DNA of 64,000 nucleotides from a virus (IMGVR_UViG_3300011008_000010:73796-137795), one strand, 5' to 3'. Positions 20,901 through 42,616 are shown, numbered from the stretch's first letter. Notes: generated by a model from the letters alone, not told the origin. Numbers and translations are program-made.

Positions 20901-22849
20901 AAACATCTGGAGCTGTTACTGGATGGACTGGCAATCAAGGCACAAGACAATCTGGAGAAGCAATTGCCGCAGATGGTGATTATAATTCTAATATGATCTG
21001 GTATGATCCGCAGGATAGCAGTAAAACTGTGAGATCTGAGTTGGATTTTAAGGCGTATGATGATCAGGTTTGGCATAGAGCCGATCCTTCTTTAACATGG
21101 AAAAATGCGCCGAACTATTCTGCTGGGAACATTACAAATACGACCGATACCGAAATAGATAATCCAGCGTATATGGGCGTTATCAAACTTGGGAACATTG
21201 CTCTGATTGCGAATTCATATTCGGCTGGTTTGTCTACTCCAACTAATTTATTCCCGTATAAAACAAAAATATATACTTCGAGATACAGATCTTATGAACA
21301 AGGTGCTCAATGGACATGGAAATGGACGACACCAATAAGACTGTTGGACACAGAGGATTTTGAATCACCGGCTTTTACCGGAGCACCAACCATTAATGGA
21401 AGTCGGATTGCAGTGGAATCTGTTGCAGGAGATAATTTAGGCCTTGTTAAAAATGGTGGCAACATTCTTATTGATTCAGAAGGAAAAATGAATTATTCAT
21501 TGCCAATTGCTACCTCTTCTATTTTGGGTGGAATAAAGGTTGGAAACGGTTTATCTATTTCTTCCGACGGAACATTATCAATATCTGGTGCTGTAACAAG
21601 TTTTAATGGAAGAACCGGAAATATCGTTTCTGTTGACGGTGATTATAGTGCTACGCAAGTAACATATAATACGACAAAAAGCGTCAAGGATAAGTTTGAT
21701 GAGATAGATTCTGGTTTAGAATCGTTTTCAGATGGATCTGGCTTGCCAATGGCATCTGAAACACAAATAGGTGTGGTTAAGATTGGTGAAGGTATAAATA
21801 TCGATTCTGACGGGAAAATATCAATATCGGGATCAGTGACGACGTTCAATACTCGCACAGGGGACATCGTTCCTCAATACGGCGATTATGATGCATCATT
21901 GATAGAATATGGAACCAATAGTAACGTTAAAGATGAGTTAGATGGTATTTTAGATGGAACAAGGCTCCCAATAGCAGGACTTTCCAAGCTTGGAGCCGTC
22001 AAGTTAAATTCAGAAAGCTCTGTGACGATTGATGCAAATGGTAATATAGATGCCTTTGGTAAAAGAGCAAATTTATCTGTTTCTTCTTTGGATGACATAC
22101 CTATAAACTCTGCTGGATTTGTTACTTATACTGGTTCTTCTCCAAGTTCTAAAACTGGTGCCTATATATGTTTGGCCATAAAAGGAACAAACCTAAATAG
22201 AGCTGTATATATTATAGAAGAAAATGAAAGAGGTATGTTGTTTTGGGGAAATACTACTCGCAAAACCCAAAGGATTTATGTATCATATGGACAAGAACAC
22301 ACATCATCGATTAGTTGGTGCGATTGGATTGCTGTCGATAATTATGTACTTGATATATCTTCAGCAAAAACATATAGTCTCAATTCAACGATAAGTTCTT
22401 ATTATAAAACCACATATAATAGTTCCACATTTGAATGGACTGATTGGAATGGTGTGTCTTTAGACAACACGAATGGTGTAATCAGAACTTCTTTAGATGG
22501 AGAAGATGTAGTCGCATCATATTTCAATGTCTCATATGGCAGAGATATGATCGGGGTAGCAAACAATTATAAAACAGCATATTCAAGATTTCCACTTACA
22601 ATTGCTGCGTTTGGCAAAATCGGAACAGGGTCTCATGCGACAGATTTTAGATATGATGAAATATTAGATGGGTTGTATTATAACAGAGGGACGACGAACC
22701 ATCGAACAGAGAGATGGATCAAACTCCTCGATTCCGAGAATTACACAGACTATATTGGTGATACTTCAAACCTTTACAACACAGAAAATTACACAACAAC
22801 AGAAATAGACGACGCAATCCAGGCAACATTAAATGAGTTGGCCGCGTAA
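17972..22849 (+). CDS. Large repetitive tail fibre protein (1625 aa)
   Basis: Repeated LPIAT..LGGxKVGxGLxI..DGxLS, VTSFNGRxG..GDY and SPxFTGxPT fibre motifs. Confidence 0.8.
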   Translation: MAKVGKVQQKRWHLDGGIEVTSIQEDGDQKPSIYLGNYNVDNSPSLALVAYTGSYYDLVDYPDLSNFVVDGNYVHTDNNFTDEDKAKLGNMFNYTLPIATEKLLGGVKVGDHLEMRKDPKDDSNNPIKDRLSVIESDFIQVLNPKSIVTKFSDIPLDAAGQLGISPIYAPIETDKDVNGYYIRYNNMAFFSQDPQTDTKTLNGKTIKIEQEYLLKGGLWWTTKNAGQWIKVLDQFNIISFNDRVGKVYPVGMDDYLNESEDYDANMVGAMARSGHPGVWTVIKDEGRIVRQFWNGQTIDSLRTTDSGWARIGCLKWDSENKRFKPDPVNSPTGGIINGTFWKLDGLPTLPTYCANPYYPDTYRGNGKGSFFFMPDDQDRIWVKRGKNWEDNGWFYLEQLPIATRTRLGGIMVGAGLDITETGVLSVSGIVTSWTGKQGARRVNEVVAMNGDYDATMITFGSEWSNTANVDYELKRLLSLINTKAPINSPAFSGRPTTPTPGPNDNGTQIVNIAWVRNHVATELQNVVGYTLPVATTSTLGGIIVGNGLSINASGVLSVNLPSGSGNVVVDTSPNTSSQNPIANSAITQYVNNVDNKFDDYVLKLNGTAQNLTLTGNAKYVTLAKGTSNDYLATTKFVMEAIDEKISIINDGSGGSSVVINQYTLPPASASTRGGVRVNGDGIILKNTDQITVDVDYLNNGKLKYIRSEENLNIGTLNSIPMNSSGVTKLSAAYGPTSKDMTGYYLKYNAGNNVSSYILWFCDFETNDSYYFVHKSDNEYAWNKTFSVEGSSNFEDFDITKYAKLDSPSFTGTPTIISDYLNDPGYNGSGIATATFVQTAISYRLGQQDKASESKYGIVRIKPNGGIKVDNGVIEMDGVVSFNGRNGDVVPGSDDYNSTQIKYSGNVSGSTVKAAIDNLWSTKAASNNTKLTGVATLNNIPIATQSWVQAWQPIASTSSLGMIKIGNGLEIESDGTLKTSGAVTGWTGNQGTRQSGEAIAADGDYNSNMIWYDPQDSSKTVRSELDFKAYDDQVWHRADPSLTWKNAPNYSAGNITNTTDTEIDNPAYMGVIKLGNIALIANSYSAGLSTPTNLFPYKTKIYTSRYRSYEQGAQWTWKWTTPIRLLDTEDFESPAFTGAPTINGSRIAVESVAGDNLGLVKNGGNILIDSEGKMNYSLPIATSSILGGIKVGNGLSISSDGTLSISGAVTSFNGRTGNIVSVDGDYSATQVTYNTTKSVKDKFDEIDSGLESFSDGSGLPMASETQIGVVKIGEGINIDSDGKISISGSVTTFNTRTGDIVPQYGDYDASLIEYGTNSNVKDELDGILDGTRLPIAGLSKLGAVKLNSESSVTIDANGNIDAFGKRANLSVSSLDDIPINSAGFVTYTGSSPSSKTGAYICLAIKGTNLNRAVYIIEENERGMLFWGNTTRKTQRIYVSYGQEHTSSISWCDWIAVDNYVLDISSAKTYSLNSTISSYYKTTYNSSTFEWTDWNGVSLDNTNGVIRTSLDGEDVVASYFNVSYGRDMIGVANNYKTAYSRFPLTIAAFGKIGTGSHATDFRYDEILDGLYYNRGTTNHRTERWIKLLDSENYTDYIGDTSNLYNTENYTTTEIDDAIQATLNELAA

Positions 22850-22869
22850 CGGAAAGGATTTAATAATTT

Positions 22870-24597
22870 ATGGCAGATAATAATAAGGCTACAAGCCTGG
22901 ATAATGTAAAACAATATGTTAAAGGTGTTCTTCAAGGGTGGATTCCAAACAAGTCCACCCTTGATGCGTTGTCTACTGGAACAAATGGGGATTTGTTATA
23001 TAATGGTCAGCCCATTGGTTCCGGAGATCCTATAACTGTGGATGCTGTCCTTAGTTCTGTTTCTGAAAATCCTGTTCAGAACAAAGTAATCTATGATGCT
23101 TTGCAAAATATAAGCGGCAGCGGAACTATTATAAGCGTCGATACTGTTTTAAGCGATACAAGCGAAAATCCGGTGCAAAATAAAGTAATTAAGTCTGCAT
23201 TGGATAATAAGGCAAATGCAAGTGACATACCTGATGTAAGCGGATTTGTAACTCAGTCGGCATTGACAGCGAAACAAGATGTATTAACATTTGACTCCTT
23301 TCCTACCGCGAATAGTATAAATCCAGTAACAAGCGGAGGTGTGTATACCGCAATACAAAATATTCCAATTGCTACGCCGATTACTGTTGATACAACGCTT
23401 AATGCAACATCGGAAAATCCGGTGCAAAATAAAGCAATATATTCGGCCTTGCAAAATATTAGCGGCGGGACGCCTGCCATAGTAGACGCCGTGTTAGATT
23501 TAACGTCTGAAAATCCTGTCCAAAATAAAGTGATCAAAGAGGCGTTAGATAAGAAGGCGGATATATCTTCTATCCCAGATGTAAGTGGATTTGCTTTAAC
23601 AAGCGACATACCCGATATTTCCGGGAAACAAGATAAATTGACGTTTGATTTGACTCCTACCAAGAATAGTTCTAACCCAGTAACAAGTGACGGGATATAT
23701 AATGCCTTGCAAAATGCGGGAACCGGAATCGGATGTGATGATACTCCTATGTCACAAATCAATCAAATGTTAATAGATATTTTTGGTGATGATAACCAGT
23801 CCGGGGTTAAAATTGTTTCGTTTGCAAGTGGGACAGATCAGGAACTTGCGGATATGCTCGCAGCTCATTATGCAGGCGACATTGACATTCATGATTATTG
23901 GTCTGTTGGTGATACAAGAACGGTTTCGTTGTCGGCTATGGACGCTACTTATGTAGGAGAGAGCCATGCTTCTCAAAGTGTAGAGATCGTGCTTGTTAAT
24001 TCGGGCGGATATATGACGAGCGATAATAAGGAGTGTGCGTTTGTTTGGCAACAAAAAGATGGACTCGCGGAACCCGGATATATGAATCCTACTGCTACAA
24101 ATAGTGGTAGTTGGACCGGTTCCGCAAGAAAAGCATGGTGTTCTTCTGTTTACAAAGAAGCTTTGCCGACAGGATTCAAAGATCTGTTAAAAGAATGTAC
24201 AGTAAAAACCGCAGAGCCAAACCAAACAGGCGTTCTATATGATGAAACGCAAGAAGATATTTTCCTTGCGTCAATGACAGAAATAAATGGAACGATTATT
24301 GATTCTACGACCAATAACAATCTAACATGGCCAGATGGATACGAAGGAAACCAATGGGACTATTATAAGACAGAGACAAACAGGCATAATAAAAAGATGG
24401 GGACGATTGCCAGCGATACCAGTACGAGACTTTTCTATTGGTTGAGGTCTCCAGACAGGGCAAGTGGCACTTCGTTTATGAGAAACCCGTCATGGACAAA
24501 TCCAACAAGACCAAAGGGAAGCCAAGCGGATTCTGCTTCTGTTACTACTACTGCTTATACATACTACTATATGATAGTCCCATGCGGATTTATTTAA
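22870..24597 (+). CDS. Fibre protein with SENPVQNK repeats and a C-terminal WLRSP (DUF6273-like) domain
   Basis: Four VDxxLxxxSENPVQNK repeats, two NPVTSxG repeats, and YWLRSP near the C-terminus. Confidence 0.7.
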   Translation: MADNNKATSLDNVKQYVKGVLQGWIPNKSTLDALSTGTNGDLLYNGQPIGSGDPITVDAVLSSVSENPVQNKVIYDALQNISGSGTIISVDTVLSDTSENPVQNKVIKSALDNKANASDIPDVSGFVTQSALTAKQDVLTFDSFPTANSINPVTSGGVYTAIQNIPIATPITVDTTLNATSENPVQNKAIYSALQNISGGTPAIVDAVLDLTSENPVQNKVIKEALDKKADISSIPDVSGFALTSDIPDISGKQDKLTFDLTPTKNSSNPVTSDGIYNALQNAGTGIGCDDTPMSQINQMLIDIFGDDNQSGVKIVSFASGTDQELADMLAAHYAGDIDIHDYWSVGDTRTVSLSAMDATYVGESHASQSVEIVLVNSGGYMTSDNKECAFVWQQKDGLAEPGYMNPTATNSGSWTGSARKAWCSSVYKEALPTGFKDLLKECTVKTAEPNQTGVLYDETQEDIFLASMTEINGTIIDSTTNNNLTWPDGYEGNQWDYYKTETNRHNKKMGTIASDTSTRLFYWLRSPDRASGTSFMRNPSWTNPTRPKGSQADSASVTTTAYTYYYMIVPCGFI

Positions 24598-24609: not shown

Positions 24610-24789
24610 ATGAGCCATATAACTCCCGAAGAACTCGACAAGAGTTTGAGACGAGTAAAGCGGTATATAGATGAAAATGGAACCTATATATCTTCGGAAC
24701 CAGATGAAGATATCACGGCTATGATTAATGAGGTGTTTGGGTTTTCGAGCAGCTCAAATGGTTCGGGTGGTTCTAATGGGCAAGAATAA
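24610..24789 (+). CDS. 59-aa protein not in the ORF track; putative fibre adaptor
   Basis: GAGGA RBS; MSHITPEELDKSLRRVKRYID...DEDITAMINEVFG; fills the gap between neighbouring genes. Confidence 0.65.
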   Translation: MSHITPEELDKSLRRVKRYIDENGTYISSEPDEDITAMINEVFGFSSSSNGSGGSNGQE

Positions 24790-24809: not shown

Positions 24810-25979
24810 ATGTCTATAATATACTTAGACAACGCAGCTACAACTCAAACATCACGGTATGTTTTTGAGCAAATGATGCCGTATTTAAAAGATCAATATG
24901 GAAATCCAAGTTCTAATTATTCGTTAGGATTAAAAGCGCGAAAAGCAAAAGAAGCAGCCCGTGAAAAGGTTGCTTCCTTAATTAATGCAGAGCCGGAAGA
25001 AATATTTTTTACTTCCGGAGCAACAGAGGCAAATAATTGGATGCTCCATTCTGTATTAGATGAATTTCGTGACATTGGGAGCATAATGATTTCCAATATT
25101 GAACACGCTTCCATTTGGAGATCTCTCGAATATGCGACAAAAGACAGGTATCAAATTGTTCGTTGTTCTGGAACTGGAGAGATACATCCTTTTGCACTGG
25201 AAAGAAGATTCAGATCAAATAAAAAAAGGATTACTTTATTGTCAATTATGATGGTAAATAATGAAACCGGAGTAATCAATGATATTAAAAGTCTTGCAAA
25301 AGAAAGCCACTATATGTATGTACCTTTTCATACGGATGCTACACAGGCGCTTGGTCATATAAAAATAGATGTAAAGGATTTATGTGTGGATGCATTGTCC
25401 GGAAGCGCACATAAAATATATGGGCCTAAAGGAGTAGGGTTTTTGTATATAAGAAAAAGATCTACCTTATATGACATTGCTCATAGACACCCTTATATTA
25501 TTGGTGGACATCAAGAGTCTGGATTGAGAGGCGGAACAGAAAACCTTGCAGGAATCGTTGGACTTGGAGCAGCATGCGAAGAAACAAAGATTTATCTCGG
25601 AGACAAGGATAAGGAATTCGGGCTTAAAAAAATGTCAAACAATATGTTGGATGTTTTAAAAAAGGAAGTTATTGCGCAGCTTAATAATGATGAAATTGTA
25701 CGATCTGTGCCTACTTTGAGCGTGAGAATACCTGGCGTCAAGAACCATGAGTTAATTCAGCTTCTCGATGAGGAAAACGTGTGTGTTTCAGCGGGATCTG
25801 CATGTAATGAAAATCAAACAAAACCGTCACATGTATTGAGTTCTATGGGGATAAAAGAGAATGAAATAAACGAAACAATCAGGATTTCTATAGGGAGAAA
25901 CAATACGGAATCAGAGATTAAAACGGCTAGTGAAATAATCATAGATAAAGTTAAGACGTTGAAAACATTCAACGATTGA
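24810..25979 (+). CDS. iscS: Cysteine desulfurase, IscS/NifS family
   Basis: IYLDNAATT, GNPSS, FTSGATEANN, HTDATQ, SAHKIYGPKGVG (PLP Lys), RGGTEN and SAGSAC (catalytic Cys). Confidence 0.93.
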   Translation: MSIIYLDNAATTQTSRYVFEQMMPYLKDQYGNPSSNYSLGLKARKAKEAAREKVASLINAEPEEIFFTSGATEANNWMLHSVLDEFRDIGSIMISNIEHASIWRSLEYATKDRYQIVRCSGTGEIHPFALERRFRSNKKRITLLSIMMVNNETGVINDIKSLAKESHYMYVPFHTDATQALGHIKIDVKDLCVDALSGSAHKIYGPKGVGFLYIRKRSTLYDIAHRHPYIIGGHQESGLRGGTENLAGIVGLGAACEETKIYLGDKDKEFGLKKMSNNMLDVLKKEVIAQLNNDEIVRSVPTLSVRIPGVKNHELIQLLDEENVCVSAGSACNENQTKPSHVLSSMGIKENEINETIRISIGRNNTESEIKTASEIIIDKVKTLKTFND

Positions 25980-27120: not shown

Positions 27121-28002
27121 ATGGGCAGAAGAACAGGGACGTTGAATTTAACGTCCAATATAGAAGCCGTGGTTTCAGCACCTCTTGACGCAAGACTGGT
27201 TGTTGAAAACAAAGAGGAATTATTAGATGCGTCATCTTATCCATATAAATATATTGGAATGATTGTATCTGTTAAAGATGAAGGGGCAGCGTACATTCTA
27301 ATAAATGCAGATACGACAGATGCGGAATCTTGGAAAAAGATTACAACTGGAACAGATGGCGTATATGACTATTTGTTCTCTTGGGATCTTACTACGAAAG
27401 AATTGATTTTAAATGAAGGAGAGCCGGACGAGCAGAGATTACGACTTTCAGGATTATCTTCTGCTCAAGACCTTATTTCTGGGTTAGATGAAAAAGTAGA
27501 TAAAGTTGATGGAAAAGGACTTAGCCCCGAAGAATATACAACTGAGGAGAAAACGCTTCTTGCATCGTTGGCGGTAATCAAGAGTATTGGAAACGGATTG
27601 TTACTTGATTCCAACGGAAATTTAATGGCAATAAATAATATTGATTTATCTGATTATTACACAAGATCGGAAACAGATAGTATTATTTCAAACATCAACA
27701 GCCTTGATTTGGTAACGGTTGCCGCTCTTCCAACATCCGACATCAGAACAGATTGTATTTATCTTTTGAATGATTCGACAGATGAAGGCAATTTATATTC
27801 CGAATATGTCTATGTCAATGGTGATTGGGAGAAATTTGGCACAGCATCGGTGGATTTATCAGATTATTATACAAAAAGTGAAGTGGATACTGCGATTGCG
27901 TCTTCTTCGTCTTCTGTTGATGCTGCGTCTGATGATGATGTGCAAGATATTATCGATGATATATTTGGTGGCGGATCGGGCGTGGATCCGGAGGAACCTT
28001 GA
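27121..28002 (+). CDS. Phage fibre accessory protein
   Basis: PLDARLVV...YxGMxVxV motif, KVDKVDGKGLS and DLSDYYT motifs. Confidence 0.7.
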   Translation: MGRRTGTLNLTSNIEAVVSAPLDARLVVENKEELLDASSYPYKYIGMIVSVKDEGAAYILINADTTDAESWKKITTGTDGVYDYLFSWDLTTKELILNEGEPDEQRLRLSGLSSAQDLISGLDEKVDKVDGKGLSPEEYTTEEKTLLASLAVIKSIGNGLLLDSNGNLMAINNIDLSDYYTRSETDSIISNINSLDLVTVAALPTSDIRTDCIYLLNDSTDEGNLYSEYVYVNGDWEKFGTASVDLSDYYTKSEVDTAIASSSSSVDAASDDDVQDIIDDIFGGGSGVDPEEP

Positions 28003-28108: not shown

Positions 28109-29311
28109 ATGGCCAACAAATTAGAATGGTACGGCGGTAACGGTGTCGTATCTATAGAGAAAATAAGGGAAGAAATAGAGAGACAAATTGCATATATAGC
28201 ATTTGACCTTTCTGAATATGCAAAAAAAGAAGATGTTCCACAGAATATCAGTGATCTAAATAATGATTCCGGGTATCAAACTGCCGCCGAAGTTGATTCT
28301 GCCATTGATGCAAAACTTTCTGGATATCAGCCTGTTGTTACAATTGATGATACATTGTCTGATACGTCAGAAAATCCCGTACAAAATAAGGCTATTAAAG
28401 CCGCGTTGGATAGTATTTCGTTAAGTGGAGTCATTGTAGATTCTGTTATATCTGCCGATAGCGAAAACCCGGTACAAAACAAGATTATTGCAGGAGCTCT
28501 CGATGATAAACAGGACAAATTGACGGCTGGAGATAGCATCAGCATTGAAAAGAATGCTGGGGGAGATACTGTAATTTCTTATACTGGAGAAATAGGTGGA
28601 ATTACGGAAGATCAAGCGAGGCAAATTGCAGCAGAACAAGCTGCTGAAAAAATTGCAGAAGGTAATTTTGCTAAAGTAGATGATATTCCGACAAACATTA
28701 GTGACTTAAATGATGACGTAGGCTATGCCAAAACATCTGATATTCCGGACGAATATGATGATACTCAGATTAAAGCGGACATTGGAAAGGTTCAAGAGGA
28801 TCTTGCGAACTATTATCTGAAGAATGAAACGTATTCAAAGGACGAGATAGACAACATTGTCGCGAATATTAACAGTTTGGATATTGTTGCCGTTACTACT
28901 CTTCCTACGCAGAATATTCGTAGCGACTGTATTTATCTCGTAAAGGATTCGCTTGTAGAAAACAATCTGTATAGTGAGTGGATTTATATTGATGATAAAT
29001 GGGAAAAGTTTGGATCTGCTTTTATTGATACAAGCAATCTTGTAACAAAAGAAGACATTGAAACGGCGCTCGAAGATTATCCCACAAAAGACGAAATGGA
29101 CATATCCATTAGTGAGGCTGTTGGTGAAAAGGTTGGTTATACATGGACATGGAGCGCTTCCGAAAGACAGATGGAAGTTAAAGACGACATTCTTGGTGAA
29201 GTTCAGACTATCCCTATGAAGGAAATCGCTTTGCTTTCAGACCTTGAAGGTCTATCAGATAACGAGGCGGTTGAAACAACAGCGGCAGAAGTGGCCGCTT
29301 TGTTTGCGTAA
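28109..29311 (+). CDS. Phage fibre protein
   Basis: PxNISDLNND repeats, two SENPVQNK repeats and the LPT/IYL/WEKFG module. Confidence 0.7.
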   Translation: MANKLEWYGGNGVVSIEKIREEIERQIAYIAFDLSEYAKKEDVPQNISDLNNDSGYQTAAEVDSAIDAKLSGYQPVVTIDDTLSDTSENPVQNKAIKAALDSISLSGVIVDSVISADSENPVQNKIIAGALDDKQDKLTAGDSISIEKNAGGDTVISYTGEIGGITEDQARQIAAEQAAEKIAEGNFAKVDDIPTNISDLNDDVGYAKTSDIPDEYDDTQIKADIGKVQEDLANYYLKNETYSKDEIDNIVANINSLDIVAVTTLPTQNIRSDCIYLVKDSLVENNLYSEWIYIDDKWEKFGSAFIDTSNLVTKEDIETALEDYPTKDEMDISISEAVGEKVGYTWTWSASERQMEVKDDILGEVQTIPMKEIALLSDLEGLSDNEAVETTAAEVAALFA

Positions 29312-30068: not shown

Positions 30069-30239
30069 ATGAAAATTGTAGAGGGCTTTGATCCGAGAGA
30101 GAAGTTGCAGGATGGCAAGATAGTTATTGTTCATAACAGGAAGATTCGGTTTACAGGTGGCGATTTATATCCTTCTGATGATCTGTATCCTGCCGAAGAT
30201 TTGTATCCTAGCGATACGAAAAATCCTAACAATAATTAA
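30069..30239 (+). CDS. 56-aa protein with a (DLYPxx)x3 repeat, not in the ORF track
   Basis: AAGGAGG RBS; ...GDLYPSDDLYPAEDLYPSD... Confidence 0.7.
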   Translation: MKIVEGFDPREKLQDGKIVIVHNRKIRFTGGDLYPSDDLYPAEDLYPSDTKNPNNN

Positions 30240-31168: not shown

Positions 31169-31373
31169 ATGGAAAAAGTTTACAAGCGTATTAACTAGAA
31201 AAAACAAACCATCAAAGGAAACGAAGATAAATAGCGAGAACTTAAACTTAATGGATTCTGCTATTGATGAAATTGATGATAGGGTTGTTGAACTGTTTGC
31301 CAAGAATGATAGCGAGTCAAATATTAAACTTAAAGACGTTATTAAACAACTAATTGACACTCCTCATAGCTAA
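31169..31373 (+). pseudogene. Degraded paralog of the 30251-31135 N-terminus
   Basis: MEKVYKRIN* (TAG where the paralog has Trp), then a frameshift in an A6 run, then NKPSKETKINSENLNLMDSAIDEIDDRVVE; ends in an IS605-type scar. Confidence 0.8.
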
Positions 31374-31403
31374 AACAAAGGGTTTACGGCGACATTTGGT
31401 AAA
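31354..31403 (-). mobile_element. Short IS200/IS605-type left-end/right-end hybrid scar
   Basis: Minus strand reads tttaccaaatgtcgccgtaaaccctttgttttagctatgaggagtgtcaa. Confidence 0.55.
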
Positions 31404-31681: not shown

Positions 31682-32404
31682 ATGGCAATTAAATACGCAA
31701 GTTTGCAAACTTTAAAATCCCTTCAGCAGGAGATCGATTCTCGTTATTTAAAAACCGCCGATTTGCCGATTTATGGCCTTGAAAAGCTTACGACTGCTAC
31801 AGAAGGATATCTTGCAAGTTATCAGTTTACAAAAGATGGTGTTGCAGTAGGCGATAAGATCAATCTTCCGAAGGATCTCGTAGTTAAAAGTGCCACTCTT
31901 GAAACCGTTACGGAAGCAGACTCTCCAGAAACTGGATACATAGTGGGCGACCGTTATATTGATATGGTAATAAATACCGTTGAAGGCGACGGTCAAGCTA
32001 CTCATGTTTATGTAAATGTCAAAGATTTGGTTGATGAATATACAGCTGGTGATGGCATCGATGTAACAAACAATGTTATTTCTTTAAAGATCAAGTCCGG
32101 CTCTCCTATTTCTGTTGATGCGGAAACTGGAGAACTTCAGATTTCAACGGTCTCCTCTTCTAGTGCTGGTGTTGTTACACCTGAGATGCTTACAAAATGG
32201 AACAATGCGGCAGGCGCTCAAATTGCCGTAGCGAGTGAAGCGACTGGAAATGGCAATGTTATTACTGGTATTTCTGTAAATGCAGCAAATGAACTCGTTG
32301 CAAATAAAGGTATTACTGCTCTTCAGGAATCAGATTTTGAAGAAATTGATGCTGCTACTGTTACTGCCTTATGGTCTGGAAGTGGTGAAAATACAGGAGA
32401 CTAA
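31682..32404 (+). CDS. Phage fibre accessory protein
   Basis: INLPKDLVVKS and DLVDEYTAGDGIDV fibre motifs. Confidence 0.7.
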   Translation: MAIKYASLQTLKSLQQEIDSRYLKTADLPIYGLEKLTTATEGYLASYQFTKDGVAVGDKINLPKDLVVKSATLETVTEADSPETGYIVGDRYIDMVINTVEGDGQATHVYVNVKDLVDEYTAGDGIDVTNNVISLKIKSGSPISVDAETGELQISTVSSSSAGVVTPEMLTKWNNAAGAQIAVASEATGNGNVITGISVNAANELVANKGITALQESDFEEIDAATVTALWSGSGENTGD

Positions 32405-33214: not shown

Positions 33215-33544
33215 ATGAATACGATGACTTTTGAGATTATTAAAGCAATTTTAATGGCGGTTATTGCGGGTGTAACGCTTTATCTTATTCCTCTTATTAA
33301 AGAGCGAATTGGAACGGAACGTTTGAATCAAATGGAAACATGGGCTATGAATGCCGTTCTTTGGGCAGAACAGTTTATAAAAGCTGATGGGAATGATAAG
33401 AAAAAGGCTGTGGTTGACTTTCTCAAAAAGATTAGAAACGAGAAGAATATCAATATTACAGACGAACAAATCGAAATTCTTATTGAGGCTGCCGTAAAAT
33501 CAATGAATGATTCTATGGTTCAAACAGACGAGAGAGAGGAATAA
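33215..33544 (+). CDS. Phage holin, LL-H-like
   Basis: One TM segment, AV.WAEQ...G..KK..V and IEAAV motifs; adjacent to the endolysin. Confidence 0.8.
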
Positions 33545-33546: not shown

Positions 33547-35055
33547 ATGGCTACCACAGAACAGATCAGGAGTTTTATTGATACTGTTGGACCATTAGCA
33601 GCACAAGTTTGTGAAGAACGAGGATACGGAAACGCGCAAGCCTGGACATGTGTTGCCCAGGCTTGCTGCGAATCTGGGTTTGGAACATCTGGCATTATGA
33701 TGGGTGCAAACGCCATTCTCGGAATTAAAGCAGATAAAGGGTGGGTGCAGGCGGCAAAATATGGTGGTCTGGTATATAGTGCTCGAACAAAGGAATGCTA
33801 TGATGGTAAAACCTACGTTGATATTACAGATGCATTCAGAGCATATGGAAGTTTAATAGATTCGGTTAGAGATTATTTTGATTTGATTGAAAAAGATCGT
33901 TATAAAGCGAGTCTTAATGCGACCACGGTTTTAGAATGCATTACAATCATTAAAAATGGCGGGTATGCTACAAGCCCTACGTATATCAACACTGTACACA
34001 ACAATTTTTATTTACCCAACAAAGAACAGATAGAAAGTTATAAAGTCAACGTGAAACAAAATGTTTCAGAACCTTCATCTAACTCCGAGCAAACATCGTC
34101 AGAAAGTAAAATTGCGTCATTTCAGTTCCACGATCCAATTGAAAACAATATCCAATTTGCGGAGACGGCTGTTTTTATCGCGAAAAACACAAAAACGTTT
34201 TATGTGAATGGAGCATGGGGATGGCCAATGACTTTAGCAAATAAAAATCGTGCATTGAACGGAACGTCATATAACAAAATCAATGCCAATGCCATTGTAT
34301 CCTTGCCAAATGGAGTGTACGGCTGGGATTGTATCTGTTTATTAAAAGGAATATTGTGGGGTTGGTGTAATCAGTGGGACCGTCAATATGGTGGAGCAGG
34401 ATATGCTTGTAATGGAGTTCAAGATCTTTCCGAAAATGTAATGATTCAAAGATGTTCTGGCGTTACATCAGATTTTAGCCTCATTCATATCGGAGAAATG
34501 TTATGGATGGACGGTCATGCAGGAATTTATATCGGGAATGGCCTTGCTGTAGAATGTACACCGAGTTGGGACAACGGGGTTCAAATTACTGCCGTTTTAA
34601 ATATTGATCAAAAACAGGGATACAATGGACGGAAATGGACCAAACACGGAATGCTTCCATATTTCCGATATGTTGATGGAGATATTGCTATCCCTGAAAC
34701 TGATAAGGCCCCATCTTCTGATTCATCGTCCAATGCAAACACGTCTATTATAACAAATAACGATTTGTCGCAATATACAGACGAGCAGTTGGCACAGATG
34801 GTCTTAGACAATAAATTTGGCAACAATCCTAAAAGACAGCAATTGCTCGGTTCAAGATACCGCGCCGTGCAAGATATTGTAAATCGTATTGTCGCAGGAG
34901 CGTCCGCAAGCGAAGTGTACGTTGTAAAATCCGGTGATACATTGTCTGCTATTGCGTCTAAATACGGCACAACTTATCAAAAAATTGCAGCAGACAATGG
35001 AATTGCCAATGTGAATCTAATTATTGTGGGGCAAAAATTAATTATAAAAAAATGA
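33547..35055 (+). CDS. Modular endolysin: GH73 glucosaminidase, Cys/His peptidase, CW_7-like and LysM domains
   Basis: [22 protein letters not shown]; [13 protein letters not shown]...HAGIYIG; [12 protein letters not shown]; [13 protein letters not shown]. Confidence 0.88.
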
Positions 35056-35137: not shown

Positions 35138-37519
35138 ATGAGTTATATTACTCCTGCTCAATTTAGAGAAGGATTGCAAGGTGCAAAGGATTACGTTGAC
35201 AGCAAAGTCGTTGGTGGCTCTGTGGATTTGTCCGTGCTCGATATGAAAGCAGATCTCGAAATTGTAGATGAGAGTTATGAAATTACGGTAAATGCTATAT
35301 CTTCAACACAAGGCATAGAATTTCGAGAAGGAAAAGAAATAGAAGTAATTGCATCAGATGATGCTGTTGCAACAGGAACATGGGAGAATGATGCAGTCGG
35401 CTTTTCTTTTGGCGGCACGGAACCTGATGTTATAATTGAGTTTGAAAACGGAGAATATTCTGTAACAACAGATAATTATGCGAATGGACCGTATAAATTA
35501 ACCGGAAACATAGGAGTTAAAAAACTTGTCAGAGAACAATTACCGGATTTGTCAGAAGGACTCCCTATGTCTGTCGAATGGGCGGATGTAAAAAATAAAC
35601 CAACTCTTTCTACTGTTGCAATATCTGGCAACTATTCTGATCTGACCGATGCTCCAACGATTATGAATGGCGCAACTTCTTACAATGATGGTAAGGAAGG
35701 GCTTGTTACAAAACCGACTACTTCAGATGTTAATAAGGCTTTGTTTGGAGATGGAAAATGGCATACTATTTATAACGAAGGACATGGAGCTACAATACTT
35801 GTAACAACAACGGAAAGTGTGTTACACGGGAAAACTGTTACTTTAACAGATGGATTGTCCACACTTACGGCAGAAATGGGTAATAATGGAGAAGCGGTAT
35901 TTCAAAATGTTTCTTTATTCGGGACTGTAATCGCCTCTGCGGAAGATGACGATAATAATGTTGCAAAAGCGTCTGTAAATATTACCTATTTCGGAACCTA
36001 TGTTGTAAATCTATCCTTGAATTACTCGACGATTGTTTTGTCTTCGACGAGCCCGGATGTGGCAGGATTGGTAGGAACAATTTTAAAAGGCACAACAGAG
36101 ATCGGGACAGTAACAATGCGCCTCGAAGACGCTTCTTTGGCTTTATCAAAGGCTGAATTTTATGTTGAAGAAGTTGGGACATATAGCATAAAATTTGATA
36201 CACAGACAAATGGTTTGTTCCGTGGATCAGTAACTGTATCCGAAATGAAAGAAAAATGCAATGTAAACGTACTGTTGTATCATGTTTATGCCTATTGTAT
36301 TGACGATAATAACTCCGACCCCATGACAAATATAGAGTATTGGGATTCTCCTTGGGGATGTGAAAATCTTGAATATAATTGTGCCCACATGGATTTTGAC
36401 AATGATATTTTTGACATGGGTTCATGGACGGGAAACGAGTTCTTTTTCCCGAAAAAGTGCATGCTGAAATCAAATGGCATAGTAGATTATTATTTTGATT
36501 CTAATAACGATATTCTTAAGGCCGATGGTAATGTATCGTCCGATTACAACAATTCAAGTTATAACGGGAACGTTATGGTTGAATTTCCAACTGCTTATTT
36601 TAATAGGTGGCAAGTTGGAGATAAGTCGTATTGTGTGATTTCAGACAAAAAATTAAGCGATGATTTTCATGCTTACGCCCATCACGATATCAACGGGAAT
36701 GTGCTGCCATATATCTATATAAGTGCTTATAATGGTTCTTACATAAACGGACAATTACGTTCAATTTCTAATATACCGGCAAATACAAATACTTCTACTA
36801 CGAGTGGACGTATTTGTAATTATACAACAAGACAACAGGAAATCAACTATGCACAGACCAATAATAGTGGTGGGCAAGGAGAACAATGGTTTACGTGGCA
36901 TAAAGCAGATTGGGATATGCTGTTAGATTATATGTTTTTAATTGGTAAAAGCACGGATCTGCAAGGAACATTTGGACGTGGATGTTCTACGGGTTATGTA
37001 TCTACGTCTAACACTGGTATGGTAACGACAGGATCTATGGATGGAAAAGGAATGTTTTGGGGTGAAAACGCAGGATCGGCAGGAGTTAAAGTCTTTTTTG
37101 TCGAAAATCCTTACGCAAATAGATGGAATGCTCTTGCTGGATGGGTAAATGATAAGGGTACGCAAAAGGTTAAAATGACCTATGGGCAAGAAGACGGTTC
37201 TACTGTAAACGGTTTTAATTTGACCGGGAGTGGATATGTTTCGATATCAGGAGCCACCCCAAGCGGGACATCTGGCGGATATATAAATAAATGGCAAAAG
37301 ACAGACAAGGGATTTATCCCATATCAATCTTCAGGAAGCCGGACTACATATGTTCCAGATGGACTTTGGTTTGATAATTCGCAAAATAATTATGTGTTTG
37401 TTGGTGCGGGTTCGCACAACGGGTTGTTATGCGGCGCGGCGGTTGCTCTGAACGGCGCCCCGGCGGTTACGGACTGGTACTTTGGCGCTTCGCTCTCTTA
37501 TAAAGGAATGGTATCTTGA
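35138..37519 (+). CDS. DGR target: fibre/receptor-binding protein with a C-terminal CLec-like variable domain
   Basis: ATG 35138 follows GGAGG; fibre motifs; the 3' end contains the VR matching the TR. Confidence 0.88.
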   Translation: MSYITPAQFREGLQGAKDYVDSKVVGGSVDLSVLDMKADLEIVDESYEITVNAISSTQGIEFREGKEIEVIASDDAVATGTWENDAVGFSFGGTEPDVIIEFENGEYSVTTDNYANGPYKLTGNIGVKKLVREQLPDLSEGLPMSVEWADVKNKPTLSTVAISGNYSDLTDAPTIMNGATSYNDGKEGLVTKPTTSDVNKALFGDGKWHTIYNEGHGATILVTTTESVLHGKTVTLTDGLSTLTAEMGNNGEAVFQNVSLFGTVIASAEDDDNNVAKASVNITYFGTYVVNLSLNYSTIVLSSTSPDVAGLVGTILKGTTEIGTVTMRLEDASLALSKAEFYVEEVGTYSIKFDTQTNGLFRGSVTVSEMKEKCNVNVLLYHVYAYCIDDNNSDPMTNIEYWDSPWGCENLEYNCAHMDFDNDIFDMGSWTGNEFFFPKKCMLKSNGIVDYYFDSNNDILKADGNVSSDYNNSSYNGNVMVEFPTAYFNRWQVGDKSYCVISDKKLSDDFHAYAHHDINGNVLPYIYISAYNGSYINGQLRSISNIPANTNTSTTSGRICNYTTRQQEINYAQTNNSGGQGEQWFTWHKADWDMLLDYMFLIGKSTDLQGTFGRGCSTGYVSTSNTGMVTTGSMDGKGMFWGENAGSAGVKVFFVENPYANRWNALAGWVNDKGTQKVKMTYGQEDGSTVNGFNLTGSGYVSISGATPSGTSGGYINKWQKTDKGFIPYQSSGSRTTYVPDGLWFDNSQNNYVFVGAGSHNGLLCGAAVALNGAPAVTDWYFGASLSYKGMVS
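37393..37501 (+). repeat. DGR variable repeat (VR)
   Basis: 109-bp gapless match to 37558-37666 with 22 differences, all opposite TR adenines. Confidence 0.97.
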
Positions 37520-37557: not shown

Positions 37558-37666
37558 TGTGATTGTTGGTGCGAATTCGAACAACAGGTTGTTATACGGC
37601 ACGACGGTTAATCTGAACAACGCCCCGACGAATACGAACTGGAACAATGACGCTTCGCTAACTTAT
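37558..37666 (+). ncRNA. DGR template repeat (TR)
   Basis: Lies between the target and RT genes; 10 AAY codons in the VR frame; adenine-specific differences from the VR. Confidence 0.95.
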
Positions 37667-37786
37667 TCCATAATGGGACGATAACTAAATGTTCAGCATA
37701 GTCCTTACCTCTCGGTAAAAATTACCCTAATAAACGTCTGTGAGTAGCATGGTATGTAGTTGAAAATGGACATGGGAATAAGAGAA

Positions 37787-38932
37787 ATGAAATCTTATAA
37801 TCATTTGTTTGAAAAATTTATAAGCGACGAAAACATTGAATTGGCTATAAAAAAGGCATCTATTGGCAAAAGAAGTCGCATACAAGTTCAAAAATATTTA
37901 AACGATCCTGAATTTGCACTTGAAATATGGATGTATGCGATAACGTTCAAAAACGCAAAGCATCGTCCAATTGAAATATATGATGGGATACAAAGAAAGA
38001 AAAGAACTATTATAGTTCCAACGTTTAAAGAACAAATAATACATCATATGCTTGTAAATGTTTTACAACCAATATTCATGCGTGGGATGTACGAACATTC
38101 ATATGGTTCAATTCCCCAAAGAGGAGGACACAAAGGAAAGAAAACGATAGAAAAATGGATCAATAGAGATATTGGAAACTGCAAATATGTTGTTAAAATG
38201 GACATAAAAAAATATTTTGATTCGATCCCTCATGACATTTACTTAAACAAGTTCAAACAAATTATCCATGATAGAGAATTTATGCGCGTTGTAAACGAGA
38301 TAACAAGTGTAATATCTTCTGACAAAGGAATTCCTCTTGGCTTTTATACTTCTCAGTGGACGGCAAATTGGTATTTACAGGATTTGGATCATTATATAAA
38401 AGAAAATTTAAAGGCAAAATATTATATTCGATACATGGACGATATGGTGATTTTTGGAAAAGATAAAACAGATCTCCATAAAATGCGAAAGGCCATAGAA
38501 AAATATTTAAACGAAAAGCTTAAGTTAAAAATGAAGGAGAATTGGCAGGTTTTTAGATTTGATTATATTGATGAGGCCGGAAATCATAAGGGTAGGTTTT
38601 TGGATTTTATGGGTTTTAGATTCTATTGTGATAAAACAATCCTAAGAAAATCTATTATGATAAAGGCAACCAGAAAAGCGATCAGGGCTGCAAAACATGA
38701 CAAACCAACTTTACATGAAATAAAAGGTGTCTTATCGTATATGGGCTGGATTGATTGTACGAATACCTATGGTATGTATGAAAATCGCATTAAACCATAT
38801 GTCAATATAAGATCGTGTAAAAAGAGAATTTCTAAGCACGACAAAAGAGAGACGGCAAAGAGAAAGAATAGAAAATATGAAGAAAAAAGACAAAAAGAAA
38901 GGAGGGAAAGAAGTGGTATTAAACTGGATTAA
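37787..38932 (+). CDS. DGR reverse transcriptase
   Basis: KMDIKKYFDSI, GIPLGFYTSQ (DGR-type GxxxSQ), YIRYMDD and DFMG; start probably ATG 37787 (track gives 37760). Confidence 0.95.
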   Translation: MKSYNHLFEKFISDENIELAIKKASIGKRSRIQVQKYLNDPEFALEIWMYAITFKNAKHRPIEIYDGIQRKKRTIIVPTFKEQIIHHMLVNVLQPIFMRGMYEHSYGSIPQRGGHKGKKTIEKWINRDIGNCKYVVKMDIKKYFDSIPHDIYLNKFKQIIHDREFMRVVNEITSVISSDKGIPLGFYTSQWTANWYLQDLDHYIKENLKAKYYIRYMDDMVIFGKDKTDLHKMRKAIEKYLNEKLKLKMKENWQVFRFDYIDEAGNHKGRFLDFMGFRFYCDKTILRKSIMIKATRKAIRAAKHDKPTLHEIKGVLSYMGWIDCTNTYGMYENRIKPYVNIRSCKKRISKHDKRETAKRKNRKYEEKRQKERRERSGIKLD

Positions 38933-39243: not shown

Positions 39244-39445
39244 ATGTTGTGAGGAGATATATAAATTACCCCGTATCATAATTCGATTATACGGTTGCTG
39301 TTAAAAGCAGATAATATAAGGCGTTCTTCCATGTTGCTTTCCCTTGTGACATACTTTAGCCTTAAATTTGCAAATGCATTAAATAGAACAAAGATCCAGC
39401 CGTATAACCACCTCTTTGAAGTAATCTGAGCAAAAGGAGAATCAA

Positions 39446-39790: not shown

Positions 39791-39866
39791 CTCATCTAGA
39801 CCTAAAAAATCCAGACCGGTAAAAGTAAGGGTTAATAAGGCGAGATCAAAAGCCAAAAGAAGATGA
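39744..39866 (+). CDS. 40-aa extremely basic peptide, not in the ORF track
   Basis: GGAG upstream; MARARQIIRTKTRKTNSSRPKKSRPVKVRVNKARSKAKRR; followed by a terminator. Confidence 0.55.
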   Translation: MARARQIIRTKTRKTNSSRPKKSRPVKVRVNKARSKAKRR

Positions 39867-39868
39867 CT

Positions 39869-39903
39869 GAGAGATCCTTTCATAAGGGTCTCTCTTTTAT
39901 TTT
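39869..39903 (+). terminator. Intrinsic terminator
   Basis: gagagatcctt-tcat-aagggtctctc followed by ttttatttt. Confidence 0.7.
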
Positions 39904-39913
39904 AGGAGATGTT

Positions 39914-40123: not shown

Positions 40124-40158
40124 TAAATGCACATAAATACAGAAAGGAAATATAAATT

Positions 40159-40833
40159 ATGGCTATCACAAATTGGGTACAAGGGGATTTATACACTGCA
40201 CAAGCAGCCAAAGATTATGTCGATGGAAAGGTTCTGACAAATGTACCTGCGAACGCGTTATTTACCGACACTCTTTATGATGATACGGCCCTTGCTGGAC
40301 GCGTAACAACCGTAGAAAGTGCAATTACAACTCTTAATGGATCAGGAGAAGGTTCTGTTTCAAAAGCTGTAGATGATGCCATTGATGATTTTGCAACAAA
40401 AATTACAAACAATGATGTTATAGATACGTTCAAAGAACTTGTTGATTATGCAGCCGAAAACGGAAGCGATTTGGCTGCCATCACAGGAAGAGTCGGGACA
40501 TTGGAAACTGCCGTTGGATCAGCAGCGGTCGAAGGGGATCCTGGGACGCCTGCAACTGGACTGTATAGATATGCGGACGATGCAATTACTGCTGCAATCT
40601 CCGCTCTTACAATTCCAACCGTCCCAACAAATGTTAGTGCATTTACTAATGACACCGGATATCAGACGGCTTCAGATGTCTCTACTGCAATCTCTGGGAA
40701 AGCAAACAGTTCAGATCTTGCCACAGTTGCAACGACCGGTAGTTTTGCTGATTTAACAAATATTCCGGCTTATCTTTCACCAGATCTTTCAACATATGAA
40801 TCAGATATTGATGCAATTTTTGCAACCGTATAA
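40159..40833 (+). CDS. Phage fibre protein
   Basis: VPANALFTDT, DTFKELVDY, PTNVSAFTND and LATVATTGSFADLTN fibre motifs. Confidence 0.75.
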   Translation: MAITNWVQGDLYTAQAAKDYVDGKVLTNVPANALFTDTLYDDTALAGRVTTVESAITTLNGSGEGSVSKAVDDAIDDFATKITNNDVIDTFKELVDYAAENGSDLAAITGRVGTLETAVGSAAVEGDPGTPATGLYRYADDAITAAISALTIPTVPTNVSAFTNDTGYQTASDVSTAISGKANSSDLATVATTGSFADLTNIPAYLSPDLSTYESDIDAIFATV

Positions 40834-40887
40834 GATGTAGTGGCAGGTAGCAAGAATCCCTCTGCCTTTAGGCATGGGGAGTGTCAA
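40834..40887 (+). mobile_element. Short IS200/IS605 right-end scar
   Basis: agcaagaatccctctgcctttaggcatggggagtgtcaa; closely similar to 12114-12150. Confidence 0.65.
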
Positions 40888-40951
40888 TATTGATAGCAAA
40901 AAGCAAGGGCGAGGTTTTTGCTCTTGTCTTGTTTTATAAAGGGGGGTTAAA

Positions 40952-42616
40952 ATGCCTTCAATACAAAGCTGGGTCGATGGAGATCAATACACGGCTCAAA
41001 AAGCAAAAGAATATGTAGATGATATAAATGGATCGGTCGCCTCTGCTTTGTCTGCGATTCAAAGTTGGATGAACAACGCGGAAACAAGAATTGAAAGCGC
41101 ATCTTATCCAGAAGGTGGTATGACAGGTCAGGTTTTAACCAAAAGATCTGATGCAGACAATGATGTAAGATGGACGACGCTTGCAGGCGGTTCTGTGATC
41201 GTGGATGATGCGCTTGACAGTGAAAGCACAAATCCTGTACGGAATGATGTTTTAACCGAGGAACTTCGTAAAAAAGCGACGGGGTATTTAACCGTTACCA
41301 ATACGCGTACCACGGATGTTATTTCACAATCGGCGGTTTCAAACTATGCGACGTACTACACGGAGAATTATGAGAATCTGACAATCAATCATCCGAGTGT
41401 GGATTATGAAGAGATGATTGTAACCGATCCTGCAACCGAGGAAGAGTACAAACATATTTTCACGCCGACCGAACTTGATGATATGTGGGATTTTATCAGC
41501 GGTTCGGCAACCTCGGATGCCGCCCGGTCGTACACGTTAAAAGGAACTACTGGCAACAAGTATCTGTATCTTCGTCGGGTTTCGATCAACGATGCTTGGC
41601 AGTATTATTACACAGTAGCCAGATTGTCGAATACTGCCGAGGTTGTTGAAGCGGTTATCAATGAATATACAGTAACGACAATTGACGAACGGCTTATACC
41701 CGATACGATCTCAAGGACAGAGGATGTTGACTCGCAAATCGCTAATCTTGTCCAAAAATCCGGTGATACTATGTCAGGTAATTTGACAGTATCAAAAGAT
41801 TCTGGCAATACGTTCTTTGTTGCTGAGCGTACAGACGTAACGATCAGCAATAGAAGTTTAGATTCAAACCATAATTGGTATAACAAAAAGGCTAAGATTG
41901 GTATTGGATATGGTGTAAACGGAACAAATTGCGGTCTGTATCATTTTGGTATGGGGGCATGGATGCTCCGTTATAACCAACAGGGGGAGTTGACGCTTGG
42001 CGGCGGAGATATTCCTGTCACTTCGCTTGAAACGCTGAAAACGGCGTTAGGGCTGTCTGCATCTGGTGGCGATGGTGGTATGGTTGCTACTATGTACACC
42101 TACAGTGACTTTACCTATGCAACCGGATTTGCAGCGTATGCCACAGGATCAACGTCAAGCAGCACACCACGTATTATGAAGTGGGGTAGATTTGTTAATA
42201 TCTCTGGCGCATTTAAGGCGACCGCTACACAAACGACAGCGGACGCTGTGGACATCGGATACGTTCCGTCGGATTGCAAGCCGGTCTACAATCAAGCAGT
42301 AAAACAGCAGGCAAGCGGATTAGGCAGTTTTCTGTTGCGAATCTATGCAAGTGACGGACGCATGACGGCAGAACGGTATGACGGTGGTTTGGTCGGTGCA
42401 TGGGATGAAGTCGCGGATTATAGTTCGTTACCAGCGGCATCGAGTCATTGGCTGACTAACCATATTTACCGGACGTCGGATGATGATAAGTTATACAGAG
42501 CAATCGGAACGACGTCAACCAATGCCGTATGGACAGAAGTGACGGATTTGAATTTGAAATCTATCCCGATTCCGAATGGGGCATGGTTGAACATTAACAT
42601 GAGTTACATTTCGTAG
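40952..42616 (+). CDS. Fibre/receptor-binding protein
   Basis: N-terminus shared with 40159-40833; GGMTGQVLTK and KSGDTMSG motifs; C-terminal RBP-head-like region (KWGRFVNISG...IGYVP..CKP). Confidence 0.7.
   Translation: MPSIQSWVDGDQYTAQKAKEYVDDINGSVASALSAIQSWMNNAETRIESASYPEGGMTGQVLTKRSDADNDVRWTTLAGGSVIVDDALDSESTNPVRNDVLTEELRKKATGYLTVTNTRTTDVISQSAVSNYATYYTENYENLTINHPSVDYEEMIVTDPATEEEYKHIFTPTELDDMWDFISGSATSDAARSYTLKGTTGNKYLYLRRVSINDAWQYYYTVARLSNTAEVVEAVINEYTVTTIDERLIPDTISRTEDVDSQIANLVQKSGDTMSGNLTVSKDSGNTFFVAERTDVTISNRSLDSNHNWYNKKAKIGIGYGVNGTNCGLYHFGMGAWMLRYNQQGELTLGGGDIPVTSLETLKTALGLSASGGDGGMVATMYTYSDFTYATGFAAYATGSTSSSTPRIMKWGRFVNISGAFKATATQTTADAVDIGYVPSDCKPVYNQAVKQQASGLGSFLLRIYASDGRMTAERYDGGLVGAWDEVADYSSLPAASSHWLTNHIYRTSDDDKLYRAIGTTSTNAVWTEVTDLNLKSIPIPNGAWLNINMSYIS

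Follow-up and report, generated by a model that had tools for sequence, protein, structure and literature searches.

The 64,000-nucleotide viral DNA stretch IMGVR_UViG_3300011008_000010:73796-137795, here called the window, carries a cluster of fibre-like genes whose products end or begin with recurring short helices. These class-paired end and start helices most likely form an undescribed joint by which phages build host-binding fibres from several proteins. In this model, fibre proteins that are encoded by separate genes and are probably trimeric would be connected non-covalently, with each motif supplying one half of the joint. One half, the plug, would be a capped amphipathic helix of ~12 residues at the extreme C-terminus, with an S/T-D-x-E N-cap and a Gly or a short acidic tail. 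The other half, the socket, would be a 20-30-residue amphipathic, coiled-coil-like helix opening the next fibre protein. The plug would pack on the socket; in the simplest arrangement, the N-terminal helices would form a bundle of three whose grooves take up the three C-helices. It is rather probable that the C-terminal helices of one trimer dock non-covalently onto the bundle of N-terminal helices that opens the following trimer. The chain would run from a starter (C-terminal motif only) through one or more linkers (both motifs) to a tip (N-terminal motif only), and tandem plugs, or plugs outnumbering sockets, would lead to branching or alternative tips.

Six proteins of the fibre cluster end with a capped amphipathic helix of the form xxDxxVxxIIxxIFG, TxxEVxALFA or YExxIDAIFA, and four to six start with an amphipathic helix of the form ITPxxLxxxLxxxKxYID, KYAxLxxLKxL or YTAQxAKxYVD (Table 1). 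Every motif string reported in an earlier note on the window was located in the window proteins where that note had placed it; the N-terminal helix of gp28109 was absent from its list. Over the whole 137.8-kb record to which the window belongs, a loose C-terminal pattern was found in the last 16 amino acids (aa) of 12 proteins, whereas sequences with shuffled residues gave 3.5 (at most 10 over 300 shuffles), and 6 of the 12 belong to the fibre cluster. A loose N-terminal pattern in the first 35 aa was found in five proteins, four of them in the cluster, compared with 0.5 after shuffling (maximum 3). As these window patterns were drawn up after the data had been seen, recurrence in the IMG/VR database serves as an independent check, and the same motifs do recur at the same terminal positions in unrelated IMG/VR contigs.

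Among the homologs of gp40159 in a collection of 5.8 billion proteins are many whose bodies are unrelated and whose ends are of one kind, ...TDEEIDALFA, ...TDSEVTTMLTEVFGS or ...EVNAMLNEVWGT. Two versions of this C-motif were back-translated into fully degenerate IUPAC patterns and scanned over IMG/VR. EEIDALFA, representing a short class of plug, was detected in 74 loci and EVxxMLxEVFG, representing a long class, in more than 116, where the chance yield was estimated by the authors at 2-3. Nearly all in-frame matches lie 0-13 residues from the stop of an open reading frame (ORF) of 100-400 aa. The motif counts cover non-redundant copies in the fetched IMG/VR loci (numbered with an L below) under a relaxed protein pattern. 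The family pattern for the C-terminus is [AST][DN]xE[VI]xx[MIL][LFI]xx[VI][FW] within ~15 residues of the end, and the C-ends of the window, apart from that of gp17972, fit it as long-class, short-class or lineage-specific forms. The motif lies at most 15 residues from the stop in 92 of 103 copies, and 10 of the remaining 11 are upstream members of tandem arrays, in which two to three copies are joined by Gly-rich or acidic linkers. The consensus, [AV]-A-T-D-x-E-V-x-E-M-L-x-E-V-F-G, can be read as a helix that is N-capped by T-D-x-E, bears a stripe of hydrophobic residues at i, i+3, i+4, i+7 and i+8, and ends in a Gly or a short disordered tail. Since tandem copies sit on floppy linkers, the plug looks like a short binding helix rather than a structural cap. 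Small proteins with two to three tandem plugs occur in L151 (22-402), L153, L212, L156, L197 and L111/L125/L138/L166, and are candidate multivalent or branching connectors.

The gene directly 3' of a long-class end opens with an amphipathic helix that follows the pattern xxKLTxLxxLKxLAxRxK. A crude pattern recovered this start at 19 of 27 non-redundant junctions, against a background of 7.6% for other ORFs in the same loci (Fisher 1e-15), and inspection by eye, in which gene starts that had been called wrongly were corrected, raised the count to at least 25 of 27. Short-class EEIDALFA ends are followed by a [FY]L[DN]LxGL start in 5 of 8 cases, against 1.7%, the three exceptions being non-fibre chance matches. 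Long-class ends are thus followed by LxxLKxLA-type starts and EEIDALFA ends by FLDLxGL-type starts, with zero cross-class junctions. The relation is reciprocal: when MAYDxxKLxKL starts were scanned for, a C-motif gene lay directly upstream in 19/19 fibre-like matches and in 0/6 chance matches. Finer correspondences were detected as well. KHTT-type starts pair with a plug that has a residue other than Met at position 8 (7/9 versus 2/55), and RIKxEY-type starts with plugs whose Phe lacks a following Gly (5/5 versus 14/59); such class statistics mean that plug and socket types travel together and do not imply contact between residues. The subclasses proposed in the earlier note, together with its expectation that they should co-vary across phages, have held in this larger sample, in which no crossing was seen.

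The genes follow a recurrent order, in which the first protein has only a plug, the middle protein or proteins have a socket and a plug, and the last protein has only a socket. This order was found in L028, L030, L106, L135, L151 and L152, and twice in the Faecalibacterium phage FP_Brigit. The distinction between linkers with both ends and tips with the N-terminal motif alone, drawn in the earlier note for this window, is therefore mirrored by a complementary layout in other phages. The three proteins measure ~104, 285-359 and ~130 aa in L106/L135, 290, 177 and 134 aa in L152, 355, 231 and 202 aa in L028, and 239, 300 and 122 aa in L030. Where the surroundings are those of a P2-like baseplate (Baseplate_J, Tail_P2_I), a gpH-like tail-fibre attachment N-terminus is combined with a terminal plug in the first protein. 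Because the baseplate attachment resides there, the downstream proteins have no evident way onto the particle except via this first protein. FP_Brigit (L256, MG711465, record positions 18413-22770) has one module of 183 and 529 aa and another of 104, 294 and 272 aa, encoded at 20655-20969, 20994-21878 and 21952-22770, and all five genes are annotated as hypothetical.

Within the window, the clearest candidate joints are those from gp27121 to gp28109 and from gp39914 to gp40159 to gp40952, where the gene following each plug starts with an N-terminal helix, in the second chain one of its own class. The end of gp27121 (SDDDVQDIIDDIFG...DPEEP) aligns column for column with 33 IMG/VR sequences of the consensus ATDxEVxEMLxEVFG, and its plug is of the non-Met, 'D-I' sub-type. 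The start of gp28109 (SIEKIREEIERQI) aligns with the xxKLTxLxxLKxLAxRxK starts of genes located 3' of C-motif genes. At its other end, gp28109 falls into the class [IM]T[NT]EEIDALFA-stop, which occupies the extreme C-terminus in ~60 IMG/VR loci; the C-ends of gp28109 and gp31682 both fit the short class. The N-terminal 80 residues of gp31682 align with a canonical linker from L169, and its start matches that of an L029 protein, MAIKYANLESLSYFLEK, which comes after ...ITNEEIDALFASKE.

The second chain represents a third, lineage-specific class of C-end, shared by gp39914 and gp40159. Its first gene could be read as an 86-aa ORF, gp39863, whose start at 39863 has no Shine-Dalgarno site and overlaps a terminator-like hairpin at 39869-39894. 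The true start is most likely ATG 39914, giving 69 aa, since this codon has a Shine-Dalgarno site and agrees with a 67-aa ortholog in L025. That ortholog ends in YEAAIDAIFQS and is followed in L025 by MAVTNYVDADKYLAQKAKAYVD...YEAAIDAIFATT, the ortholog of gp40159, and then by MAVTNYVNADYYTAQKVKEYVD. The N-terminal helix of gp40159 is kept in the 62%-identical ortholog P0002. As gp40159 and gp40952 share ~100 paralogous N-terminal residues, their motifs are not independent observations. The last proteins of this chain in the window and in L025, gp40952 (554 aa) and the L025 tip (509 aa), have the first ~48 residues conserved and are otherwise barely alignable, so that a body has been replaced behind a conserved N-terminal helix, in line with the interchangeable tips suggested by the earlier note. 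A search for relatives of the gp40952 tip found none in IMG/VR and only weak fibre-like leads in the protein atlas.

A further exchangeable tip is probably encoded by the target gene of a diversity-generating retroelement (DGR) at 35138-37519, because its socket is of a kind found elsewhere after long-class plugs. Its start is close to that of an L028 linker, MAISTDKLLKLSQFQTGLQAAKDYTD, located 3' of a gene that ends in the long-class plug ...STDAEVNSVINQVFS. The DGR, to which the earlier note had attributed the hypermutation of a fibre protein, is confirmed by a 109-nt variable repeat (VR, 37393-37501) and a template repeat (TR, 37558-37666) with 22 mismatches, all at TR adenines. The target has all the marks of such a gene: a VR at its 3' end, adenine-specific differences from the TR and a neighbouring reverse transcriptase (RT; RVT_1). 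In tblastn searches, only the C-terminal half of the protein was matched, in Butyrivibrio phages.

The smallest member, gp24610 (59 aa), fits the long class as a variant, by pattern and by inspection, and its N-terminal start is 43% identical to that of the DGR target. AlphaFold2 (AF2) predicts both of its motifs to be helical, with helices at residues 6-23 (predicted local distance difference test, pLDDT, ~70-83) and 33-43 and a disordered tail at 46-59. That the small ORFs of the fibre cluster are artefacts was considered and rejected: all have Shine-Dalgarno sites and all except gp24610 have orthologs or family members elsewhere.

In gp22870 the plug is internal and could be a branch point or a relic of fusion. 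The Pfam domain DUF6273 follows at residues 408-533; it is described as C-type-lectin-like and as frequently targeted by DGRs (PMC10743442). In stand-alone DUF6273 proteins the start corresponds to gp22870 residue ~313, and a Rosetta-stone search with these homologs of the C-terminal half found no plug among their neighbours. The first helix of the DUF6273 region, W[AS]xGTDxEIxAMVxAA (gp22870 residues 319-335, 23824-23874; P0130-P0136), resembles the plug ATDxEVxxMLxEVFG. This likeness could be due to chance between capped helices, or could hint at the origin of the plug.

Several observations weigh against the docking joint or narrow its reach. Binding, stoichiometry, geometry, presence in the virion and the pairing of plugs and sockets of non-adjacent genes are inferred for every member, and a literature search for virion proteomics found none for any carrier phage. 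The co-variation of classes, like the summed mutual information between plugs and sockets (186 versus 170 +/- 3.4 for shuffled pairs), is confounded by common descent and by the tight linkage of neighbours. Partners are missing next to some window ends, namely the C-ends of gp24610 and gp28109, both ends of gp31682 and the N-end of the DGR target. No N-terminal helix opens the genes downstream of these three C-ends; a cysteine desulfurase gene follows gp24610, a membrane protein of the lysis cassette follows gp31682, and the DGR target is preceded by the endolysin. Either docking does not need adjacency, the order having been broken by insertions, or some of these ends are relics. The YExxIDAIFA / YTAQxAKxYVD class was found in this phage lineage only, and an IMG/VR scan for YExxIDAIF returned 16 matches, all internal or due to chance. 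By sequence, gp24610 is an orphan lacking true homologs: a HMMER search of 1.8 billion representatives gave only spurious matches (YIDENG-type repeats, MucBP-like and eukaryote-like repeat proteins). Capped helices of the S/T-x-x-E kind and KxYVD-like strings also occur inside fibre shafts, and weak single matches may be generic. This applies to the end of gp17972, a possible member of the C-type class at most, whose last position is L instead of F/W/Y and which fails the relaxed pattern. In FP_Brigit the modules are located outside the tail region, with the large terminase gene on one side and the portal gene on the other, and their appendage may be a neck or head fibre instead of a tail fibre.

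The earlier note had read the motifs as a docking chain and had suggested a search for homologs in which the C-motif is directly followed by the N-helix in one chain. None was found in a limited sample, comprising the fetched loci and 120+ database proteins. The only fusions found, P0137 and P0138 (relatives of L110:4491-4877), are deletion variants that bypass the joint and are longer relatives of a tip protein: the starter is broken inside or just after the plug and fused to the tip body, and the linker gene and the N-helix of the tip are lost. A complex prediction with three copies of gp27121 residues 241-293 and three of gp28109 residues 1-70, made with custom alignments, gave a score of 0.01, which counts neither for nor against docking. 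The docking chain is partly supported, because class co-variation, complementary layout and the tip swap are its predictions.

The internal occurrences of similar motifs would suit an account in which both are generic intrachain elements, the C-helix capping the trimer or setting its register and the N-helix serving as a coiled coil by which each protein is anchored, independently of the others, to the baseplate or neck. Every gene would on this account encode a short fibre by itself, and adjacency would be due only to the clustering of fibre genes. The shafts contain scattered capped helices (TKSEVDTAI and TAAEVDSAI, for example), KxYVD-like strings are internal in other fibre proteins, the cluster is full of foldon-like GDGKW motifs and other generic modules, and several window motifs have no neighbouring partner. 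However, generic elements would not explain why the first gene has no N-helix and the last no C-helix, why two to three plugs are strung on flexible Gly-rich linkers, why every one of the 19 N-helix genes has a plug upstream, or why plug and socket classes co-vary without crossing. Proteins of 59-130 aa, consisting of hardly more than a helix and a small domain, would moreover need attachment sites of their own, and this account is considered unlikely.

The small size of many N-only proteins, ~120-146 aa, and their position where tail fibre assembly genes usually lie recall fibre chaperones of the Tfa or gp38 type. The plug would in that case be a docking site for an assembly factor, which could act transiently or remain as a cap. 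Capping chaperones or adhesins on fibre tips are known, and the chaperone-capped fibres of Alteromonas phage provide a precedent (PMC10579305). Against this stand the N-only proteins of 373-554 aa (FP_Brigit, 529 aa; L168, 373 aa; gp40952, 554 aa), with clear fibre or receptor-binding bodies, among them the DGR target with its VR. The tip family phrog_23587 is homologous to a domain in annotated tail fibre proteins (phrog_27381) and in the baseplate-anchored first protein of L152. Linkers have the same N-helix together with a plug of their own, which a chaperone would not need, and a chaperone role is quite unlikely for the family.

It is very unlikely that the conserved gene ends are mainly recombination linkers for the swapping of homologous fibre modules, with no part in contacts between proteins. 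In favour of this reading, tip bodies are exchanged behind the conserved N-terminal ~48 residues, P0137 and P0138 break exactly in the motifs and fibre loci are mosaic. Against it, what is conserved is the amino-acid sequence, with synonymous positions varying freely (the patterns being fully degenerate), the constant traits are helix caps and the amphipathic placing of hydrophobic residues, and the intergenic spacer from plug to socket ranges from 0 to ~200 nt. Such a use would be compatible with docking, not exclusive of it.

The principle of a multi-gene fibre is known, and the specific family of helix/helix junctions appears to be undescribed in the literature and libraries searched. In the long tail fibre of T4, successive genes supply the proteins gp34-gp35-gp36-gp37, which are joined end to end with the receptor-binding part last. 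It resembles the chain proposed here in this end-to-end, tip-last construction; its joints, however, are made of larger domains and a monomeric hinge protein. It does not share the short conserved plug/socket family, and no sequence similarity was detected in any search made. In modular polyketide synthases (PKS), each subunit is bound through its helical C-terminal tail to the coiled coil at the N-terminus of the subunit that follows it, and compatibility classes set the order. The comparison with these docking domains, made in the earlier note, stands as a principle but goes no further than analogy: PKS subunits are dimeric enzymes, unlike trimeric virion fibres, and no homology links them.

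The neck fibre of the Anabaena myophage A-1(L) is encoded by adjacent genes for an anchor, an extender stacked head-to-tail and a distal tip, gp82-gp81-gp80 (Yu et al. 2024, PMC10966104). It self-assembles from trimers and includes a bead chain of ~14 gp81 trimers (PMC10966104). The starter, linker and tip logic is the same as proposed here, whereas the modelled A-1(L) joints are N-terminal beta-hairpins on a globular trimer and not a C-helix on an N-helix, the sequences have no detectable relation, and the structure is a cyanophage neck fibre. No homology to gp34-37 or gp80-82 was found by PDB sequence search, Pfam or NCBIfam. The joint family would work like the chain-assembled fibres of T4 and A-1(L) but is not a member of them.

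Klebsiella KP32-like phages have a T4gp10-like branching domain and a conserved N-terminal docking peptide; docking of the secondary receptor-binding protein on the primary one is reported to have been validated experimentally, and the tips are exchangeable (PMC6872550, PMC13352976). The two systems share a short conserved N-terminal peptide that docks the downstream protein, along with exchangeable tips. They differ in that the primary Klebsiella protein contains the socket, a folded branching domain, and the secondary one contributes its N-terminus as the plug, whereas in the joint proposed here a terminal helix of 12 residues is the upstream partner. There is no sequence relation, and the Klebsiella phages are podophages of Gram-negative hosts. 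No protein of the cluster has a Pfam or PHROG match to a T4gp10-like branching domain. The geometry proposed here, with three C-helices and three N-helices in a bundle, has been solved in diffocin and A-1(L), where the tape measure trimer and the spike trimer are intertwined through the C-terminal helices of the former and the N-terminal helices of the latter (PMC11329794, PMC10966104). Those helices lie inside the tube and do not connect fibre segments, they have no sequence relation to the fibre motifs, and a class code is not known for them.

Members of the joint family have no match among Pfam and NCBIfam models, and the PHROGs to which they belong (33094, 38190, 31688 and 23587) are listed as 'unknown function'. 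A PDB sequence search with gp40159, gp28109 and two motif profiles gave nothing significant. The best PDB match to the plug, the calmodulin helix TDEEVDEML (E = 0.14), was rejected as a chance likeness between capped helices. A literature search for the plug and socket motifs found no description. If the joint is real, it would explain how host-recognition fibres are made from small 'hypothetical' proteins in many gut phages, including cultured Faecalibacterium phages, and would assign a role to these four PHROGs. It would also provide a simple annotation rule for starter, linker and tip genes, and reveal where DGR-diversified tips are attached. A compact protein-protein connector with apparent specificity classes would in addition inform the evolution of fibres by module exchange. 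A bolder extension, which we regard as doubtful, is that the joint is a widespread, class-coded modular connector of Bacillota (gut) phages, in which specificity residues (plug position 8 and the position after Phe) set the pairing and tandem plugs create branches. One virion would then show several alternative or branched tips, including DGR-diversified ones, made from few parts, and the family would amount to a natural, transferable 'snap-fit' standard for fibre assembly, undescribed so far.

Table 1. Genes and helix motifs of the fibre region, in window coordinates
Feature	Position	Strand	Remarks
Late genes, including the fibre cluster	166 to ~43000	+	giant tape measure and baseplate-like genes
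gp17972, 1625-aa fibre	17972-22849	+	
gp17972, C-terminal 18 residues TTTEIDDAIQATLNELAA	22793..22846	+	weak, divergent C-type-like helix
Run of fibre-like ORFs	3' of gp17972, 5' of lysis cassette	+	
gp22870, N-type-like helix ATSLDNVKQYVKGVLQG	22888..22938	+	resembles TTLDQLKxLAQR-type starts after C-motif genes in IMG/VR
gp22870, internal C-type QINQMLIDIFG, residues 296-306	23755..23787	+	followed by short acidic/Gly linker and DUF6273
gp24610 (59 aa), N-type helix HITPEELDKSLRRVKRYID, residues 3-21	24616..24672	+	
gp24610, C-type DITAMINEVFG, residues 34-44	24709..24741	+	followed by Ser/Gly-rich tail
gp27121, long-class C-type DVQDIIDDIFG, residues 273-283	27937..27969	+	tail GGSGVDPEEP
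gp28109, N-type helix VVSIEKIREEIERQIAYIA, residues 13-31	28145..28201	+	gene directly 3' of gp27121
gp28109, short-class C-type TAAEVAALFA, residues 391-400	29279..29308	+	very C-end
gp31682, N-type helix KYASLQTLKSLQQEID, residues 4-19	31691..31738	+	
gp31682, C-type DAATVTALWS, residues 223-232	32348..32377	+	tail GSGENTGD
Holin (lysis cassette)	33215-33544	+	
Endolysin (lysis cassette)	33547-35055	+	glucosaminidase/CW_7/LysM
DGR target	35138-37519	+	
DGR target, N-type helix YITPAQFREGLQGAKDYVD, residues 3-21	35144..35200	+	counted from ATG 35138
DGR RT	37760-38932		RVT_1
Three more fibre genes, gp39914, gp40159 and gp40952	3' of DGR	+	
gp39914 (putative 69-aa starter), C-type YENAINSIFAA	40088..40120	+	last 11 residues
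gp40159 (putative linker), N-type helix WVQGDLYTAQAAKDYVD, residues 6-22	40174..40224	+	
gp40159, C-type YESDIDAIFAT, residues 213-223	40795..40827	+	
gp40952 (putative tip), N-type helix WVDGDQYTAQKAKEYVD, residues 7-23	40970..41020	+	

The window comprises bases 73796-137795 of its IMG/VR record, which has an estimated completeness of 77%. Judging from the type of endolysin and from the nearest relatives, the source is probably a Bacillota phage of a gut-type habitat. A megablast search of the fibre cluster against cultured phages gave no match.

Some further features were noted in and around the cluster. An intact gene for a class-V aminotransferase / cysteine desulfurase (24810-25979, Pfam E = 1e-71) lies inside it, directly 3' of gp24610. 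An ORF of 56 aa at 30069-30239 has a good Shine-Dalgarno site and a C-end made of three DLYP(S/A)(D/E)D-like repeats; its sole PHROG match, to phrog_18190 (unknown function), is weak and partial (E = 7.5e-05). The 546-nt gap between gp30251 and gp31682 contains, at 31169-31400, a decayed second copy of the N-terminal anchor of gp30251, which reads MEKVYKRIN, a stop and then, in another frame, KPSKETKINSENLNLMDSAIDEIDDRVVEL..., and is what a frameshift has left of the duplicated start of a fibre gene. A 421-aa ORF (62296-63561) near the window's end stands out by its guanine-plus-cytosine content of 0.49, compared with ~0.36, and its start presumably resembles that of an IS110-type transposase.

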